Source of the DNA: a virus
Lineage: Duplodnaviria > Heunggongvirae > Uroviricota > Caudoviricetes
Length of the DNA: 15,256 nt
Reading direction: 5' to 3' (one strand)
Virus record (IMG/VR): IMGVR_UViG_2526164646_000014
Positions 3,498-15,256 of the stretch are shown piece by piece (position 1 is the first letter of the stretch; every line of letters starts with the position of its first letter). Below the pieces are notes generated by a model. It saw only the letters and a list, made by a program, of their open reading frames with translations. It searched no databases and was not told the origin of the DNA. Made by a program: the position numbers and the translations under genes.

Positions 3498-3808
3498 TTA
3501 AATTTAGCACTGTTAAAAATTTAATCCTTAACCGGAGGGATTTCTGCACCCTCAAATCATCAGGAGACCGCCCGAAAGGGCGGTAATGAATGGTTACATT
3601 ATTTAGAAAAAATATCCGCGAAAGAGTAGAACAACAGAATTCCTGTTTCTCATTCTGTTTATCGTGTTGATGACACCGATATCCCCGCAAATTTTTGTCT
3701 GGATAATCGGAAAAATAATTGAGCCAGTTATTGAATTGTATAACGACGTGGTATGGGCGTCATTCAACACACTGCACAATAAAATTAATCCGTATAAGGA
3801 AAGCTGAT

Positions 3809-6315: not shown

Positions 6316-6819
6316 TTACTGATAGTGTTTTATGTTCAGATAATGCCCGATGACCTTGTCATGCAGCTCCACCGATTTTGAGAACGACAGTGACTTCCGT
6401 ACCAGCCTTGCCAGATGTTGTCTCAGATTCAGATTATGTCGCTCAATGCGCTGAGTGTAACGCTTGCTGATAACGTGCAGCTTTCCCTTCAGGCGTGATT
6501 CATACAGCGGCCAGCCATCCGTCATCCATACCACGACCTCAAAGGCCGACAGCAGGCTCAGAAGACGCTCCAGTGTGGCCAGAGTGCGTTCACCGAAGAC
6601 GTGCGCCACAACCGTCCTCCGTATCCTGTCATACGCGTAAAACAGCCAGCGCTGACGTGATTTAGCACCGACGTAGCCCCAATGTTCGTCCATTTCAGCG
6701 CAGACAATCACATCACTGCCCGGTTGTATGCGCGAGGTTACCGACTGCGGCCTGAGTTTTTTAAGTGACGTAAAACCGTGTTGAGGCCAACGCCCATAAT
6801 GCGTGCACTGGCGCGACAT
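6316..6819 (-). CDS. insB: IS1 InsB (fused to InsA by frameshifting to give the transposase)
   Basis: 167-aa ORF overlapping insA in the -1 frame; matches recalled InsB. Confidence 0.9.
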
Positions 6820-7013
6820 CCGACGCCATTCATGGCCATATCAATGATTTTCTGGTGCGTACCGGGCTGAGAGGCGGTGTAAGTGAACTGTAGTTGCCAT
6901 GTTTTACGGCAATGAGAGCAGAGATAGCGCTGATGTCCGGCAGTGCTTTTGCCGTTACGCACCACGCCTTCAGTAGCGGAGCAGGAAGGACATCTGATGG
7001 AAATGGAAGCCAC
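6738..7013 (-). CDS. insA: IS1 InsA
   Basis: [42 protein letters not shown]... (91 aa). Confidence 0.9.
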
Positions 7014-7146: not shown

Positions 7147-7746
7147 ATGGCGCATATACAACTGGTCAAACAAACCTCTTCCGGATTACTTCTCCCGGCG
7201 ACGCCGGAGAGTTGCGATTTTTTGCATCAAATCAAAATAGGTGAGTGGATACACGCAGACTTTAAGCGTGTGCGTAACTACGCATTCCACAAGCGTTTTT
7301 TCAAACTCCTGCAACTGGGATTTGATTACTGGACTCCGGTCGGTGGGGCGATCACGCCTCGCGAACGAAAACTGGTATCAGGCTTCGTTGATTACCTGTG
7401 CGAATCAGTAGGTCGGGAACACACTCCAGCCCTGAGTGATGCCGCAGAGCAATACCTTAATACAGTTGCGACATGCAGAACCCGGGATACGGCATTGCTA
7501 AAGTCGTTTGACGCTTTCCGCGAGTGGGTAACCATTCAGGCCGGATTTTACACCGAGCATATTTATCCTGATGGTAGTCGTGGGCGCAGGGCAAAATCTA
7601 TCGCATTTGCGAACATGGACGAAACCGAGTTTCAGCAGGTTTATAAATCTGTACTGAATGTGCTGTGGAACTGGATCCTGTTCCGTAAATTTTCCTCTCC
7701 GGAGGAAGTCGAAAATGTGGCCGCGCAGTTACTGGAGTTTGCGTAA
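7147..7746 (+). CDS. DUF1367-like phage protein (YdfU-like)
   Basis: 199-aa ORF; ggag SD at 7134..7137; position between rem and Q as in Qin (recalled). Confidence 0.6.
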   Translation: MAHIQLVKQTSSGLLLPATPESCDFLHQIKIGEWIHADFKRVRNYAFHKRFFKLLQLGFDYWTPVGGAITPRERKLVSGFVDYLCESVGREHTPALSDAAEQYLNTVATCRTRDTALLKSFDAFREWVTIQAGFYTEHIYPDGSRGRRAKSIAFANMDETEFQQVYKSVLNVLWNWILFRKFSSPEEVENVAAQLLEFA

Positions 7747-8036
7747 TGGTGGATTTACGTAAAGCGGCGCGGGGGCAGATGTGCACCGTCAGAATTCCTG
7801 GCTACTGCAATCACAATCCCGAAACTTCTGTGCTGGCGCATTACAGGCTGGCGGGGACGTGCGGAACAGCGACAAAACCACACGATATGCAGGCAGCGAT
7901 TGCCTGTAGCTCATGCCACGATTTAATCGACGGGCGGGTAAAAACCAGCGATTACACCAAAGAAGAATTACGCCTGATGCATGCAGAAGGTGTTTTTCGC
8001 ACACAAGAAATCTGGAGAAAGGAAGGTTATTTATGA
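7746..8036 (+). CDS. DUF1364-like cysteine-rich protein (YbcO-like putative nuclease)
   Basis: 96 aa with cysteines in pairs (C..C, C...C, CSSCHD); TAATG overlap with the upstream gene. Confidence 0.6.
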   Translation: MVDLRKAARGQMCTVRIPGYCNHNPETSVLAHYRLAGTCGTATKPHDMQAAIACSSCHDLIDGRVKTSDYTKEELRLMHAEGVFRTQEIWRKEGYL

Positions 8037-8587
8037 TTTACCCAACAAATACAGGCAAAAGCGGGGAACACCTTCGTCTCACCACGCTGGAAAGTGTCTG
8101 GATTCAGGGAAAACTGCGCATGTGGGGGCGCTGGTCGTATATTGGCGGCGGTAAGACGGGAAATATGTTTAACCAGTTGCTGGCATCCAAAAAATTGACG
8201 AAAACAGCCGTCAATGAAGCCCTGCGCAGGATGAAAAAAGCGGGAATAGAGAAACCTGAGCTGGAAGCGTTTTTGCGAGAGATGATCAATGGCAAGCAAA
8301 AGACCTGGCTGGCGCATTGTACTGATGCAGAGGCGTTATGTATTGATAGAGTCATAAGTGAGGTGCTGGCAGAGCATCCTGGATTGATTAGTGTCCTCCG
8401 GCAACGGTATGAAGGGCGGGGGATGACTAAGCGTAAAATGGCTGAATTGCTGAATGACGCACACCCTGAGTGGTGTTTCCGGACGTGCTGCAGTCGGGTA
8501 GATGTATGGCTAAATCTTGCTGAATATATGCTCTATCTACCGATGCGTGATGCATTCTCTTCCGGGGATCTAAAAACCGTTTGTTGA
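8033..8587 (+). CDS. Late-gene antiterminator Q-like protein (184 aa)
   Basis: ATGA overlap with the upstream gene; SD aaggaagg upstream of 8033; stop codon embedded in a strong promoter followed by a short leader and intrinsic terminator (the Q-qut-pR'-tR' arrangement). Track ORF from 7913 is an overlapping 5' extension. Confidence 0.6.
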   Translation: MIYPTNTGKSGEHLRLTTLESVWIQGKLRMWGRWSYIGGGKTGNMFNQLLASKKLTKTAVNEALRRMKKAGIEKPELEAFLREMINGKQKTWLAHCTDAEALCIDRVISEVLAEHPGLISVLRQRYEGRGMTKRKMAELLNDAHPEWCFRTCCSRVDVWLNLAEYMLYLPMRDAFSSGDLKTVC

Positions 8588-8613
8588 CTCAATCTGTTAT
8601 CCGGGGCTATATT
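8584..8613 (+). promoter_or_regulatory. pR'-like late promoter (TTGACT-18 bp-TATATT)
   Basis: -35 TTGACT at 8584..8589 and -10 TATATT at 8608..8613, immediately after Q. Confidence 0.5.
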
Positions 8614-8674
8614 CCTCACGCGCCAGCAAAATCTGGCGTCGGGATTGGCGTCCCGGATGTTTACGGAGCGATAT

Positions 8675-8697
8675 GAGACGCGCCCGCGTCTTTTTTC
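8675..8697 (+). terminator. tR'-like intrinsic terminator
   Basis: gacgc-gccc-gcgtc hairpin (8677..8690) followed by TTTTTT (8691..8696). Confidence 0.75.
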
Positions 8698-8974
8698 ATA
8701 TCGTTTGCACAGTCACATTCGCGATTTATGGCGGGCTGTGTGGGGGAGCCGAAAGGCTCGCCGGTTTCCGTACCCGGTTACGCCAACCCTGCACAGTTCG
8801 CCACCAGTTCGATTGGCGTCGTCGGTGGCGATAATTTCCAAATGTACGGAGTTATCGTTATGACCACTCAAATCTCTGTTGAAACTCTCTCCCCGATCAC
8901 CCATAACCAGTGAGGTAGCCTGAGTTTAACGGACACTCCTTCCTGAAATAGAATGGCATCAGAAGGAGCTAATA

Positions 8975-9277
8975 ATGAGCAGAAAAACCCAACGTTACTC
9001 TAAAGAGTTCAAAGCCGAAGCTGTCAGAACGGTTCTTGAAAATCAACTTTCGATCAGTGAAGGCGCTTCCCGATTATCCCTTCCTGAAGACACTTTAGGA
9101 CAATGGGTTACCGCCGCCAGAAAAGGGCTCGGTACTCCTGGTTCCCGCACGGTGGCTGAACTGGAATCTGAAATTCTGCAACTGCGTAAGGCGTTAAATG
9201 AAGCTCGCCTTGAGCGAGATATATTAAAAAAAGCAACAGCGTATTTTGCACAGGAGTCGCTGAAAAATACGCGTTAA
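8975..9277 (+). CDS. IS600 OrfA (HTH plus leucine zipper)
   Basis: MSRKTQRYSKEFKAEAVRTV...LERDILKKATAYFAQESLKNTR. Confidence 0.85.
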   Translation: MSRKTQRYSKEFKAEAVRTVLENQLSISEGASRLSLPEDTLGQWVTAARKGLGTPGSRTVAELESEILQLRKALNEARLERDILKKATAYFAQESLKNTR

Positions 9278-9312
9278 TCGAACAATGGCGACAACAATTT
9301 CCCATTGAAGCG

Positions 9313-10131
9313 ATGTGTCAGGTATTTGGTGTATCCAGGAGCGGTTATTACAACTGGGTACAGCATGAACCCTCAGACAGAAAACAAAGTGATGAGCGGC
9401 TAAAACTGGAGATTAAGGTGGCACATATCCGCACTCGCGAAACATATGGAACCCGGCGGCTCCAGACGGAGCTGGCAGAGAATGGCATCATCGTTGGTCG
9501 TGACCGACTGGCACGTCTTCGTAAGGAGCTGAGGCTACGCTGTAAGCAGAAACGCAAGTTCAGAGCGACTACGAACCCGAACCACAATCTGCCAGTTGCG
9601 CCAAATCTGCTGAACCAGACGTTCGCTCCTACAGCACCAAATCAGGTCTGGGTGGCGGACCTGACGTATGTTGCCACACAGGAGGGATGGTTGTACCTCG
9701 CTGGCATCAAAGATGTTTATACGTGCGAAATTGTCGGCTACGCCATGGGAGAGCGCATGACAAAAGAGCTGACAGGTAAAGCCCTGTTTATGGCGCTCAG
9801 GAGCCAGCGCCCACCTGCCGGGCTAATCCACCACTCTGATCGAGGTTCACAGTACTGCGCATACGATTACCGGGTCATACAGGAGCAGTCTGGTCTGAAA
9901 ACATCAATGTCGCGTAAAGGTAACTGTTACGACAACGCTCCGATGGAAAGCTTCTGGGGAACGCTGAAAAATGAGAGCCTGAGCCACTATCGTTTTAATA
10001 ACCGGGATGAAGCCATCTCAGTAATACGGGAATACATTGAGATTTTCTACAATCGTCAGCGTCGTCACTCTCGTCTGGGGAATATCTCCCCGGCAGCCTT
10101 CAGGGAAAAATATCATCAGATGACTGCTTAA
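9313..10131 (+). CDS. IS600 OrfB (DDE transposase catalytic domain; expressed as OrfAB by -1 frameshift)
   Basis: 272-aa ORF in the -1 frame relative to orfA, with IS3-family DDE-region sequence (WVADLTYV..., HHSDRGSQY). Confidence 0.85.
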   Translation: MCQVFGVSRSGYYNWVQHEPSDRKQSDERLKLEIKVAHIRTRETYGTRRLQTELAENGIIVGRDRLARLRKELRLRCKQKRKFRATTNPNHNLPVAPNLLNQTFAPTAPNQVWVADLTYVATQEGWLYLAGIKDVYTCEIVGYAMGERMTKELTGKALFMALRSQRPPAGLIHHSDRGSQYCAYDYRVIQEQSGLKTSMSRKGNCYDNAPMESFWGTLKNESLSHYRFNNRDEAISVIREYIEIFYNRQRRHSRLGNISPAAFREKYHQMTA

Positions 10132-10779
10132 AAAAAGAACAAATGGTAGTGTCCGCTATTGCCAGTACACCTCACAGATTCCTGTTATTACCACCGAACT
10201 TTTGGCGCAGCTTTACGGCACTGAGCCGGTGCGTATTCGCCAGAATCATCATGAGAACAAAGTACGCTTCGTTGAAGGGAAACACTTTTTCAAAGTTGTT
10301 GGTAATGACCTTAAAGAATTGCGGGTCGCTTTAAACTACTCACAAAATCCAGTTTCACCCAAAGCCCGCTCCCTCATCCTCTGGACAGAACGAGGCGCAG
10401 CACGCCACGGCAAAATGCTCGAAACCGATCAGGCGTGGGATGTGTTCGAAAAACTGGAAGACTGCTATTTCAGTCAAAGGGATCCGTCAACGCCAGTTTC
10501 ATGCCAGAAAAGTTACGACACGCGAGTTCTCTGTTATCAGAGAGGCGGTGTCACTGTTTCCACAATTCAGTTACGGGATGATGATATTGTTATTTCCCTT
10601 GAGTCATGGCTGGAACTGGCGAGAGCCAATGGTTGGTTTGTTGTTCGCAGAGATAAACTGGTGGAAAGGTTGATGCAGCTTTAAAAAAGTTCTTGCATTT
10701 TTGCACATAAACTGCTTCAATTCCGGTAAGCTTCGCAAAGCTGTATCGCGAGGCGAATAGCAGACATGGACACTTGAAA

Positions 10780-10892: not shown

Positions 10893-10969
10893 GGCCCTTT
10901 AGCTCAGTTGGTCAGAGCGAGCGACTCATAATCGCCAGGTCGCTGGTTCAAGTCCAGCAAGGGCCACCA
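10893..10969 (+). tRNA. tRNA-Ile2 (anticodon CAU, lysidine type; formally could be Met)
   Basis: Hand-folded cloverleaf: acceptor GGCCCTT/AAGGGCC, anticodon loop CTCATAA (CAT at 10927..10929), T-loop TTCAAGT, encoded CCA; close to recalled E. coli ileX. Confidence 0.8.
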
Positions 10970-10970
10970 A

Positions 10971-11047
10971 CCACCACTAGCTCATCCGGATAGAGCATCA
11001 ACCTTCTAAGTTGACGGTGCGAGGTTCGAGTCCTCGGTGGTGGGCCA
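10971..11047 (+). tRNA. tRNA-Arg (anticodon UCU)
   Basis: Acceptor CCACCAC/GTGGTGG (unusual C1:G72), anticodon loop CTTCTAA (TCT at 11005..11007), T-arm CGAGG-TTCGAGT-CCTCG, encoded CCA. Confidence 0.75.
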
Positions 11048-11049
11048 GC

Positions 11050-11125
<76 letters not shown>

Positions 11126-11128
11126 TAT

Positions 11129-11203
<75 letters not shown>

Positions 11204-12274
11204 TGACCTTTCTTAAAGTACTCCAACCTACTGAATCCTAAGGGATACGGCTTTAAGCCTCCTTGCAGAGTTACTTACTGTAACCCACTGTGTAACCCTC
11301 TCAGGGCATACAGACATATGATTCAGCTATCCAGTAGTCACAAACTTCCAGCAGTCTACTATCTCTACCAGCGTAACGGCGTCTACTACTTCCGTCTTAG
11401 GGTCAGACAATCAAACAATGATAGAATGACCTCAATATCATTACGGACCAAGGATAGACGCACCGCTATGGCTTACTCAAGGCACATAAAGGCAGCACTC
11501 AAGGCAATACACGCAGACAGACCCAACGCTACCTACGAGGAAATGAGGGAACACCTTAAGGACATCGCTGAGTGTGAACTGTCTATGGGCCGTTCAGATC
11601 TCTTTGAGCCTGACATGAGGGATATCTACCGGGACCAATACGGAGAACTTGGTGAGAGCCTTACCGATGCTCTGGCTAGTGAGCCGCTAAGCATTGACCA
11701 GCATCGTTACATCAATGAGGCCCTGAAGGTGCTAAAAGCCTGTATGAGGCGTATCGAAGCGGGAGACAGTCAGCCTCTGATAGATTACGTCGATCTTTTT
11801 AATGATATTGATAGGCAAGATAACCAAGCAGACTCTGTGTCCCTATCTGTTAATGCTCCAGAAGTAAAACCAGAAGTTACGCCTAGCATTACCATAGCGA
11901 GCCTCTTTGAGCAATACGAAGCGGAGAACTATCAGAACTGGAAGCCTGCAACCTTAAGGGAAAACAAGGCGTCACACGCTGCGTTAATCGAAATATTCGA
12001 CCATCTGGGTCTCAATGCAGACGCTAACAGGGCTGACATGCTTAGGGTCCGTGATGTGCTCCAGCAGTTACCTAGGAACCGTAAGCAGCGCTTCAAGGAT
12101 GTCCCACTTGCTGACCTGTTGAGCCGTGAAGATAAGACAGATTGTCTGGATGTCGTTACCATCAACAACAAGTATCTTATTAAGATGGCTGCTGTCTTTA
12201 GGTGGGCTGTGCGCAATGACTTGATTAAAAAGAACATGACTGAGGGTCTGGAGCTTAAAGTCCCTCTGAAGTGG

Positions 12275-13441
<1,167 letters not shown>

Positions 13442-14259
13442 TGGAGCACCTGTGTTGTTCTGAGGTGAGCATATCACCTCTGTTCAGGTGGCCAAATTCA
13501 GTGTGCCACTTCACTCAGCGTAAAGCCTCAGGGGCCCGTAACGCCTTCTCTACGGAGCAGGTGGGGCAACTACTGGTCGCAGCTAAGGCATACTCTCAGA
13601 AGACCTCTGGTAAGCCGTATCATTATTATGTTACCGCCTTGGCTGCTATCACTGGGGCGAGACTCAATGAAATAGCCCAACTACAGGTCAAAGACGTCAG
13701 GACCACTGAGGCGGGAACCGTTTATATTCATATCAATGAAGACGATAGTAGTCTACCCGGTAAGAGCATCAAGAACGCTCATAGTGACCGCTGTGTGCCT
13801 CTGGTCGATGGGGCCTATGGTTTTATATTGGCTGACTTTATGGCGCTTGTAGAGACCCGTAGAGGCGCTGACGGTGATGACGCTATGGTGTTCGATGGTC
13901 TGCGTCTCATGAAGAACGGTTACGGTGAGCAGGTGAGTAAATGGTTTAATCGGACGTTGTTGCCTAAAGTCCTCGTAGACCGTAGCGGCTTAGCGTTTCA
14001 CTCGTTTAGACATACAGTTGCGACCCAGTTAAAACAACATGGGGTCGAGTTGGCGTATGCACAGGCGATCATGGGGCATAGTTCAGGGTCTATTACGTAC
14101 GACCGTTATGCTAAAGAGGTCGAGGTTGATAGGCTGGTCAATGTGATGGCTGATGTTTATAAGGAGACCTAGAGGAGACCATAGTCTAGGATGACACTTA
14201 CTACAGACCTGTGTGGTCATGTTTTTGACTCATAGTTTTCTCTACTTGTCAAGGATAAT

Positions 14260-14282
14260 TAATACGACTCACTATAGGGAGA
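14260..14282 (+). promoter_or_regulatory. Perfect T7 RNA polymerase class III promoter consensus (TAATACGACTCACTATAGGGAGA), +1 G at 14277
   Basis: Exact 23/23 match to the T7 -17..+6 consensus read directly from the sequence; points rightward toward the repeat region and the Rha-like gene. Confidence 0.85.
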
Positions 14283-14480
14283 AGGGACACAAAAAGTTTT
14301 CTCTTCTAGGACAACTAACCGTAACTTATCGCATCCTTTCAGGGGCGGGATGACCAATTACAGACACCAAGCGTTCTACTTAAAGTGAATGCTTCCTGTG
14401 TGCTCTGGGTCAGTCGATAAGTGAATAGCAATAAGACACAATCATCTTAATTATGGTCTCTAGTCCCTACAGGGGCTTAA

Positions 14481-14565
14481 CTTAAAGTTAACTTAAAGAC
14501 ACAATTAAAGATTAACTTATAGTATTACTTAAAGTTAACTTAAAGACACAATTAGAGATTAACTT
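14481..14565. repeat. AT-rich tandem duplication (38-bp unit cttaaagttaacttaaagacacaatta[a/g]agattaactt, period 47 bp) inside a ~140-bp AT-rich tract rich in TTAAAG
   Basis: Copies at 14481..14518 and 14528..14565 differ at one position; additional TTAAAG / ATTAAAGA motifs extend to about 14615. Confidence 0.8.
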
Positions 14566-14666
14566 TAAGTATTAAATAAAAGATTTAATTAAAGACCAAT
14601 TAAAGATTAACTCTAAGGGAATACCTTAAGGGGTGATGATATTTATAATAATCAATCACCAAACCT

Positions 14667-14743
14667 ATAGGTCTTCTCTAGGGTCTCTCTATAGGTCTTC
14701 TCTATGGTCTCTCTATAGGTCTCTCTAGGGTCTCCTCTAGGCA
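14667..14743 (+). repeat. Iteron array B: about 6 direct copies of a 12-bp unit (A/G)GGTCT(C/T)TCTCTA
   Basis: aggtcttctcta gggtctctctat aggtcttctctat ggtctctctat aggtctctct agggtctcctctagg, read directly. Confidence 0.8.
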
Positions 14744-14760
14744 TTACCCCCAGAAGCTAA

Positions 14761-14800
14761 CTCTATGGCCCTCTATGGTCCTCTATGGTCCTCTATGGCC
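14761..14800 (+). repeat. Iteron array C: 4 perfect tandem 10-bp units CTCTATGG(C/T)C
   Basis: ctctatggcc ctctatggtc ctctatggtc ctctatggcc. Confidence 0.85.
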
Positions 14801-14847
14801 CTGTACGTCATTCTTTAGGATGCCCTGTAGTTTCGTATAGCCTGATG

Positions 14848-14892
14848 CCTAGAGAGACCCTAGAGAGACCCTAGAGTGGCTCCTAGAGAGAC
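14848..14892 (-). repeat. Iteron array D: 4 copies of CCTAGAGAGAC (reverse complement of the array B unit)
   Basis: cctagagagac cctagagagac cctagagtggct cctagagagac; reverse complement GTCTCTCTAGG matches array B units. Confidence 0.8.
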
Positions 14893-15055
14893 CCTCCCAG
14901 TAGCTCCGCACAGCTACATCGTCATCATCATAGTATTCAATCTCAAAGTCATTCTGTTTGCATCCTGTTGTCCTGCTGGTCTCCCTTCGCTTGGGGACTT
15001 TGAGTAGGTCAGTGGGGGTGCGACTTCAGGGTGCAAACAAAAAGGAAATCAAGCG

Positions 15056-15228
15056 ATGTCTCAACAACCACAACAACCACAACAACCACAACAACCACAA
15101 CAAGAAATCAGCATCATTAACCTCGACCAGCTTGTGTCCATGACCTCAGTTGAAATTGCTGAGCTGACAGGCAAGGAGCACCGAAATGTCCTTCGTGATA
15201 TTCGTAAGATGCTCGAAGAACTTAACGC
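15056..15228 (+). pseudogene. Phage regulatory protein Rha-like (N-terminal 57 codons), truncated by IS1
   Basis: SD agga at 15043..15046; MSQQPQQPQQPQQPQQEISIINLDQLVSMTSVEIAELTGKEHRNVLRDIRKMLEELNA then the IS1 end; the SVEIAELTGKEHRNVLRDIRK stretch resembles the Rha family N-terminus (recalled). Confidence 0.6.
15062..15103 (+). repeat. In-frame 9-bp tandem repeat (CAACAACCA x4.7) encoding (QQP)n
   Basis: caacaacca repeated, read directly in the Rha-like ORF. Confidence 0.9.
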
Positions 15229-15256
15229 GGGTAATGCTGCCAACTTACTGATTTAG
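15229..15256 (+). mobile_element. IS1, terminal 28 bp of a second copy (runs off the window), inverted relative to the copy at 6301..7068
   Basis: GGTAATGCTGCCAACTTACTGATTTAG is identical to the end of the first copy at 7068..7042 (reverse complement). Confidence 0.85.

Follow-up and report, generated by a model that had tools for sequence, protein, structure and literature searches.

The window analysed here, a 15,256-nucleotide stretch of DNA held as IMG/VR record IMGVR_UViG_2526164646_000014 (Caudoviricetes), contains a degraded Shigella/E. coli copy of the known “T7 island” family (Chen & Schneider 2006). Our subject is a pair of short repeats that overlaps the stop codon of the island's integrase gene, together with the wider repeat family to which this pair belongs and the non-coding control region over which that family is spread. 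The island is laid out as a tRNA-Gly gene, a tyrosine integrase gene, an exact T7 promoter, a leader, an AT-rich tract and a small Rha or KilA-N gene (Table 1), and it is a member of the family on three grounds: a T7 promoter without a cognate polymerase gene, an integrase upstream of that promoter, and few small, non-structural genes downstream of it.

The window copy is decayed. An IS3-family insertion sequence (IS), with open reading frames (ORFs) at 12275-13114 and 13191-13514, splits the integrase gene, which is intact (534 aa) in other assemblies (L027-L030) and ends 88 nt before the T7 promoter in the window. The right part of the island has been lost to IS1, so that only the tRNA-side copy of the direct repeat is left, and IS1 sequence likewise follows the Rha-family fragment in L027 and L028. 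Seven NCBI assemblies, found through the 66-aa product of 15056-15256, match the window with 100% identity over the integrase, the non-coding region and the beginning of the next gene; most of them have the intact, 534-aa integrase. Related elements with about 92% identity occur in 263 of 5426 complete E. coli genomes, where they sit at the chromosomal tRNA-Gly beside actS, unlike the window copy inside a prophage. These E. coli islands are 4.2-4.4 kb long and bounded by a 23-bp direct repeat, the 23-nt tRNA tail TTCGATTCCCTTCGCCCGCTCCA recurring 4.2-4.4 kb downstream as attR, and they contain an integrase, a non-coding region of 0.5-1.2 kb, a KilA-N protein (its score just under the Pfam cutoff) and a 157-aa ORF. 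An RNA polymerase gene is absent from the 4.2-kb islands, which have only two small ORFs besides the integrase, and no replication initiator, helicase or primase was found in the complete 4.2-4.4 kb islands.

Table 1. Coordinates of the island's features in the window, numbered from its first nucleotide (TRF, Tandem Repeats Finder; SRL, short repeats of the left genome end)
Feature	Position	Strand	Remarks
tRNA-Gly(tcc), integration target	11129..11203	+	ARAGORN; last 24 nt (11180-11203) form the att core
Paired TGTAACC motifs, 12 bp apart	11280..11298 (11280/11292)	+	Likely integrase arm-type sites
Tyrosine integrase gene, IS-split	11318..14172	+	Pfam Phage_integrase on a relative, E 2e-18
IS3-family element inside integrase gene	12267..13513	-	1247 bp, 3-bp target duplication; junctions from intact L027
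Left pair: two 11-bp units, AGGAGACCTAG + AGGAGACCATAG	14162..14184	+	Phage-sense; overlaps integrase stop; T7/T3 SRL position
T7 class III consensus promoter TAATACGACTCACTATAGGGAGA	14260..14282	+	Exact, 23 nt, 0 mismatches
Conserved leader	14323..14425	+	Candidate structured RNA made by T7 RNA polymerase
Single TATGGTCTCT copy	14452..14461	+	Left edge of AT-rich tract; conserved in all relatives
AT-rich TTAAAG-repeat tract, 2.9 x 47 bp	14477..14612	+	TRF; homologue of the AT-rich portion of the T3/T7 primary origin
Array B: 6.2 x 12 bp (CTATAGGTCTCT)	14665..14741	-	TRF; units of the CCTAGAG/CCTATAG type when read on the - strand
Array C: 4.2 x 10 bp (CTCTATGGYC)	14761..14802	+	TRF; 2.5-3.5 copies at other loci
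GATGCCCTGTAGTT 14-mer	14819..14832	+	Exact match in T3, immediately to the left of its right terminal repeat
Array D: 4.3 x 11 bp (CCTAGAGAGAC)	14848..14895	+	TRF; phage-sense
TGGTCTCCCT	14977..14986	+	Most conserved non-coding part upstream of first gene; invariant in all aligned relatives
Rha-family gene fragment	15056..15256	+	Pfam Phage_pRha, E 7e-10; ended by IS1 at ~15229

The repeat pair and its family

The short motif AGGAGACC stands on the + strand at 14162-14169 and 14173-14180, one copy on either side of the integrase stop codon TAG (14170-14172), and on the - strand at 14729-14736, with a further copy at 3562; these four occurrences compare with 0.29 expected in the window. The longer CCTAGAGGAGACC (14168-14180) recurs at 14729-14741 as its exact reverse complement, and when up to two mismatches are allowed two more copies appear inside array B, at 14670 and 14694, against an expectation of 0.27 matches. 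For each of the two motifs, 0/200 dinucleotide-preserving shuffles reached four. In the repeat search, the inverted match spans 17 nt (14168-14184 against 14725-14741) with 94% complementarity and a spacing of 540 nt. The tandem copies around the stop codon and the exact inverted copy downstream are thus present just as an earlier, sequence-only reading of this DNA had described them.

That reading had further assigned the pair to the repeat family of the downstream arrays, and here, too, it holds. The heptamer CCTAGAG occurs eight times in the 15.3-kb window, always within the arrays of the non-coding region and between 14168 and 14888, five times on the + strand and three times on the -; the left pair and array D lie on the strand of the promoter, and array B, with its three exact heptamers, is inverted. 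Within the family the heptamer adjoins a GAGACC/GGTCTC core, and a looser core, TA[TG]?GG[TC]C, is found 16 times in 941 nt as compared to 9 times in the other 14.1 kb, shuffles averaging 1.9 and never exceeding 6. The motif does bracket the T7 promoter and the AT-rich tract, inverted relative to array B, and this arrangement recurs in seven E. coli relatives. There, an array of 2-12.5 copies of the 13-bp unit GATGACCATAGGC lies directly 3′ of the integrase stop, always on one strand and opposite to most of the downstream copies.

Copy number is unstable within the family. The left pair is identical in 11/11 loci of the window's lineage, whereas the other three arrays vary. Since E. coli relatives have single copies of arrays B and D and 2.5-3.5 of array C, the window's arrays are expansions of ancestral single units. 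Even near-identical sequences differ: L042 has seven copies in array B, three in array C, three in array D and two AT-rich units, L034 is short of one AT-rich unit (the 47-bp units numbering 2-3 overall), and L040 and L041 have three promoter units. The two single copies of the core, at 14452 and 14977, are invariant in every relative, including two without arrays; the single TATGGTCTCT copy, for example, is found in every E. coli relative, among them the array-less L005 and L039, and also in L007 and L009. Further afield, an island in Lonsdalea (L010) carries four copies of CCTGAGAGGA, the reverse complement of which, GGTCCTCTCA, is nearly the same as the unit of array C in the window, GGTCCTCTAT.

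Several side observations concern the arrays themselves. Arrays B and D are complementary, and the transcript of 14655-14905 is predicted to fold into a long, very stable hairpin of -106.5 kcal/mol (z -6.2) with array C in its loop; in a transcript made by T7 polymerase, this predicted hairpin could be a substrate of RNase III. The hairpin is lineage-specific, as E. coli relatives with single copies have little pairing. A reading frame that runs from 14636 through array B was considered and set aside as non-coding, since 10-bp changes in copy number shift the frame and it is not conserved. Further downstream, a CAACAACCA repeat of 4.7 copies (15062-15103), with three copies in L042, gives the Rha-family protein an N-terminal QQP run.

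Likeness to T7-group signals

The promoter, a 100% match to the T7 promoters phi13, phi6.5, phi10, and phiOR, lies 92 nt downstream of the left-pair heptamer and on the same strand. All close relatives carry one to three exact T7 promoters, sometimes as 118-bp tandem units, and integrase relatives in 20 other Enterobacterales genomes often have promoters of other T7-group types. Among the islands examined for this (L008, L022, L024, L010), the type tracks the host, with a K11-type promoter, AATTAGGGCACACTATAGGGAGA, in Klebsiella and a T3-like one, AATTAACCCACACTATAGGGAGA, in Kluyvera and Proteus. E. coli relatives also contain a degenerate extra promoter, CAATACGACTTACTAATAGGAGA (L001 16411, L004 8057, L006 7507), on a segment absent from the window, and its 5′ end corresponds to a 10-bp unit, AATCAATACG, present in one to three tandem copies. 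A scan for sigma-70 promoters and terminators returned matches at chance level.

Behind the promoter comes a leader of about 100 nt that is near-invariant across Escherichia, Rouxiella, Klebsiella, and Morganella islands. Its alignment comprises eight loci (the window, L001, L005, L039, L007, L008, L009, and L014) from five lineages, namely the four genera just named and an unclassified Enterobacteriaceae isolate. From this alignment RNAalifold proposes a three-way structure with compensatory changes, closed by a helix of ACTTATCG and CGATAAGT, the pairing of which survives a double change, U:A to C:G, in Klebsiella. No Rfam family matched in 14100-15256, and the leader may be an undescribed structured RNA made by a phage polymerase. 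Three IMG/VR contigs also contain the leader; because of their IMG genome-style identifiers, we read them as prophage calls from isolate genomes rather than as virion evidence.

In T7, the gap between genes 1 and 1.1 is the primary origin, consisting of tandem phage promoters and an AT-rich region. The BLAST matches of the island's AT-rich tract fall in the corresponding place in T3-like phages, at about 6.2 kb and between genes 1 and 1.1, and local alignment to the T3-like gap scores 63 as compared to 17.9 +/- 3.1 for shuffles. The tract aligns more weakly with the T7 primary origin and with the phiOL region of T7. Judged by these alignments, the segment bracketed by the repeats is a mimic of a phage promoter plus origin; with no initiator encoded on the island, it does not qualify as an iteron origin of the plasmid type.

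The repeats themselves probably resemble those at the ends of the same phage genomes. T7 has 22 copies of CCTAAAG on its + strand, 16 of which fall within 340 nt of the left end or 270 nt of the right end, that is, in the terminal repeat and the adjoining short repeats of the left and right ends (SRL and SRR), and T3 has the same pattern. The part of array D at 14870-14895 (CCTAGAGTGGCT-CCTAGAGAGACCCT) aligns over 23/27 positions with T3 CCTAAAGTGGTTGCCTAAAGAGACCCT (z 7.7), which represents the last CCTAAAG (SRR) repeats before the right terminal repeat, and array B can be aligned with T7 SRL when the latter is reverse-complemented (z 4.9). Across the T7 genome, 10-mers of the island units (two mismatches or fewer) are densest at 1-450 and 39450-39900, where they reach 12 and 8-9 per 300 bp (mean, 2.4), although the Poisson test of this density is anti-conservative, the T7 ends being repetitive themselves. 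Because these matches are short and were seen in targeted comparisons only, we consider the resemblance of the island repeats to the T3 and T7 end repeats to be probable rather than certain. Megablast of the region against phages gave no match, distant BLAST gave matches to the promoter and AT-rich tract only, and neither a terminal repeat nor a cleavage site was identified in the island. One candidate for a T3-like genome end, TCATAGTATTCAATCTCAAAG (14928-14950), lies 32 nt after array D and resembles the left end of T3, TCTCATAGTTCAAGAACCCAAAG, which lies 34 nt after the last T3 repeat; it was dropped since the E. coli relatives lack it. Immediately beyond, at about 14951-14971, ATTCTGTT and ATCCTGTT come close to ATCTGTT, the pause signal of T7 RNA polymerase.

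Possible roles of the repeats

Our tentative reading, to which we assign a probability of roughly 0.4, is that the pair is the integrase-proximal member of a short, copy-variable repeat family in a control region that mimics helper-phage signals. With the same reserve, we view the control region as an assembly of mimics of T7-group non-coding modules, comprising the promoter, the AT-rich tract of the primary origin, and SRL/SRR-like repeats. The sequences themselves show the repeat family, the conserved position of an array behind the integrase in relatives, the unstable copy number, a probable resemblance to phage ends, and the homology of the AT-rich tract to the phage origin. From these comparisons we infer that a cis-signal role, in which the repeats imitate the ends of the helper genome, is likely. 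Upon infection by a T7-like phage, the phage RNA polymerase would fire the island promoter at 14260, and the ensuing transcription would both express the downstream genes and provide the primers for replication at the AT-rich tract. Serving as cis signals, the flanking repeats would then make amplified island DNA resemble a helper genome end, which could be offered to end processing or packaging. In T7, packaging starts from polymerase paused at the concatemer junction (PMC3276506). In the window copy itself any such function has probably been lost, considering that the integrase is split and the downstream gene truncated. A bolder form of the proposal, which we hold to be unlikely, would make T7 islands true satellites of virulent T7-like phages through near-total cis mimicry of promoter, primary origin, and concatemer-junction repeats. 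Infection would then transcribe, amplify, and possibly package the island without any island-encoded replication or packaging protein, and the CCTAGAG arrays would be read by the end-processing or packaging machinery of the helper, their rapid changes in copy number tuning or escaping the interaction.

A number of results weigh against helper mimicry. The arrays are absent in L005 and L039, and most other genera have none or have unrelated units, while the differences in copy number between near-identical strains argue against strong constraint. The left unit of E. coli, GATGACCATAGGC, does not contain CCTAGAG and is a poor match for the T7 SRL unit. A database-wide phage BLAST of 14800-14960 returned chance matches only, and the exact array strings are found in no recognised IMG/VR phage, only in island-bearing contigs and the metagenome contig L043. 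To our knowledge, no function of SRL and SRR has been established in T7 itself. The literature we searched contains no experiment that shows T7 islands to replicate or to be packaged, and no later experimental work on them.

Alternatively, the repeats, the pair at the integrase stop among them, may be neutral minisatellites that serve no function today, either by-products of slippage or unequal crossover or remnants of captured phage-end DNA, a possibility that we find on the whole doubtful. It would account for the fact that every repeated feature varies, from the promoter (1-3 x 118 bp) and AT-rich units (2-3 x 47 bp) through arrays B, C, and D to AATCAATACG (one to three copies) and the CAACAACCA repeat in the Rha-family gene, and it sits well with the existence of arrays that lack the shared core, with the array-less L005 and L039, and with the mixture of TGGCC and TGGTC within arrays. 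It fits less well with five separate arrays that share one core in two orientations at conserved positions, with single core copies that stay invariant even where arrays are missing, with the near-identical 10-bp unit in Lonsdalea, and with a left pair unchanged throughout the window's lineage (11/11 loci). Another idea is that the repeats are iterons, by which a KilA-N or Rha-family protein of the island would organise its origin or promoter, as with the iterons around the AT-rich origin of SaPIs (Staphylococcus aureus pathogenicity islands) and PICIs (chromosomal islands inducible by phage). Spaced at near-helical periods of 10-13 bp, the repeats lie on both sides of an AT-rich tract, and the first downstream gene encodes a KilA-N or Rha-family protein, the domains of which we take to be DNA-binding; moreover, the Rha lineage has GGTCTC-type units and the KilA-N lineage GATGACCATAGGC-type units. 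However, with two lineages only, such apparent covariation is inseparable from shared ancestry, and the core is common to lineages with different downstream protein families. Given also that the 4.2-kb islands have no initiator, helicase, or primase gene, that copy number is unstable, and that the sequence, length (10-13 bp), and number (0-12.5) of the units all vary among close relatives, we regard the iteron reading as quite unlikely.

Very unlikely, in our estimate, is a further origin-related scenario, in which the repeats would be clusters of sites for the helper's gene 4 primase (GGGTC, TGGTC, GTGTC), set on opposite strands around the origin and priming the lagging strand outward. Such pentamers do number 23 per kb in the non-coding region, 3.7 times the 6.3 per kb of the window overall, both invariant single copies are TGGTC on the + strand, and the left array on the - strand with arrays B and C on the + strand would suit forks leaving the origin. 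Yet many units carry AGGTC or TGGCC, which are non-sites by established T7 biochemistry, array D and the pre-promoter array of E. coli are on the “wrong” strand, islands of other genera show weak enrichment and no strand bias, and the T7 origin model calls for no tandem arrays. Finally, the sequence-only reading had suggested arm-type or site-specific recombination sites, or a looped regulatory region. As recombination sites, the repeats would be integrase arm sites or would frame an invertible promoter switch in inverted orientation. Inverted copies bracket the promoter and a tyrosine recombinase gene is adjacent, a layout of inverted repeats around a promoter near a recombinase that FimB/FimE-type switches share. 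Arm sites, however, would lie within a few hundred bp of the att core and in both arms; the repeat pair is 2.96 kb from the core in the window and about 1.77 kb from it in relatives with an intact integrase. The arm positions at both ends are instead filled by TGTAACC pairs, which appear in L001, L004, L005, L006, and L035 as (C)TGTAACC about 100 bp inward of attL and some 75-95 bp inward of attR and are much better arm-site candidates than the CCTAGAGGAGACC repeats. No inverted promoter segment was seen in the roughly 20 related loci inspected, and the repeats to the left and right do not form exact inverted copies of each other in the E. coli relatives. On the core distance of 1.8-3 kb, the TGTAACC pairs, and the single orientation at these loci, we rejected this explanation, the chance of which is next to negligible, and the main value of the analysis for the repeat pair is this correction: it is not an integrase arm site.

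Comparison with known systems

Chen and Schneider are said to have predicted in 2006 that T7 islands depend on T7-like phages, and they reportedly found direct repeats of 17-24 bp at both island ends, one of them inside a tRNA gene. The element described here resembles those islands in its tRNA-adjacent tyrosine integrase, its T7-like promoter without an RNA polymerase gene, and its few small, phage-related, non-structural genes; the islands of the family reportedly also have sizes of 4-13 kb, short direct repeats at the ends, and a distribution in enterobacteria that includes Shigella and E. coli. The window copy departs from it in having one promoter instead of a tandem set (three are present in relatives L040 and L041), in being truncated by IS1 with its integrase split by an IS3-family element, and in sitting at a tRNA-Gly within a prophage remnant. 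That tRNA is the last of a Met-Arg-Thr-Gly cluster (10893-11203) in an IS-riddled lambdoid prophage remnant, and NinB/NinE-like, YbcO, and Q-antiterminator-like genes lie upstream of the cluster (7147-10684). The IS1 end occupies 15229-15256, and more transposase ORFs of the IS2/IS3 and IS1 types are located in the prophage part, at 1-1106, 6316-7013, and 8975-10131. The window as a whole is rich in insertion sequences, which in our view suits a Shigella-like genome.

With the dependence predicted in 2006 in mind, it is of interest that some T7-island copies are now known to carry the anti-T7 protein RAZR (PD-T7-4). In L005 (E. coli 33-6), the PD-T7-4 defence gene (6358-6999; padloc E 1.9e-101) lies between the integrase and the T7 promoter and overlaps the integrase stop by 8 nt, and in L039 another ORF, of 201 aa, takes the same slot. 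This placement matches what has been written of PD-T7-4, which “often overlaps an integrase gene” (PMC9519451), and it fits the reported activation of RAZR by the portal proteins of T3 and T7 (PMC13017515).

The T7 primary origin, with phi1.1A and phi1.1B followed by an AT-rich region, has a candidate counterpart in the one to three T7 promoters of the islands and the alignable, TTAAAG-type AT-rich tract that follows them, and primase pentamers are present inside the island tract. In the island, however, the tract begins about 195 nt past the transcription start, after the leader, and is triplicated, whereas in T7 it comes directly after the promoter. With SRL and SRR of T7 and T3, the island shares heptamer repeats with periods of about 11-13 bp (13 bp in T7 SRL), placed by a phage promoter and an AT-rich tract. 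The left pair in particular has the orientation of SRL and stands at a similar distance upstream of its promoter, the last SRL heptamer being 55 nt upstream of phiOL in T7 and 97 nt in T3. The differences are that the island has CCTAGAG, a one-base variant of CCTAAAG, that its copy numbers are far less stable, and that the phage copies are all on one strand whereas array B is inverted.

As for satellites, the non-coding region provides concrete cis elements and makes directly testable the question of whether T7, a classic virulent phage, has a satellite of its own. SaPIs, PICIs, and the minimalist satellites of virulent phages (PICMI, PMC10803314) resemble the T7 islands as small integrase islands proposed to depend on a helper, with repeats that flank an AT-rich region and with no structural genes. 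The T7 island differs in that its mobilisation by a helper is putative, in that it has no gene for a replication initiator or primase, and in that its control signals copy the promoter and origin of the helper instead of serving as targets for proteins of the island.

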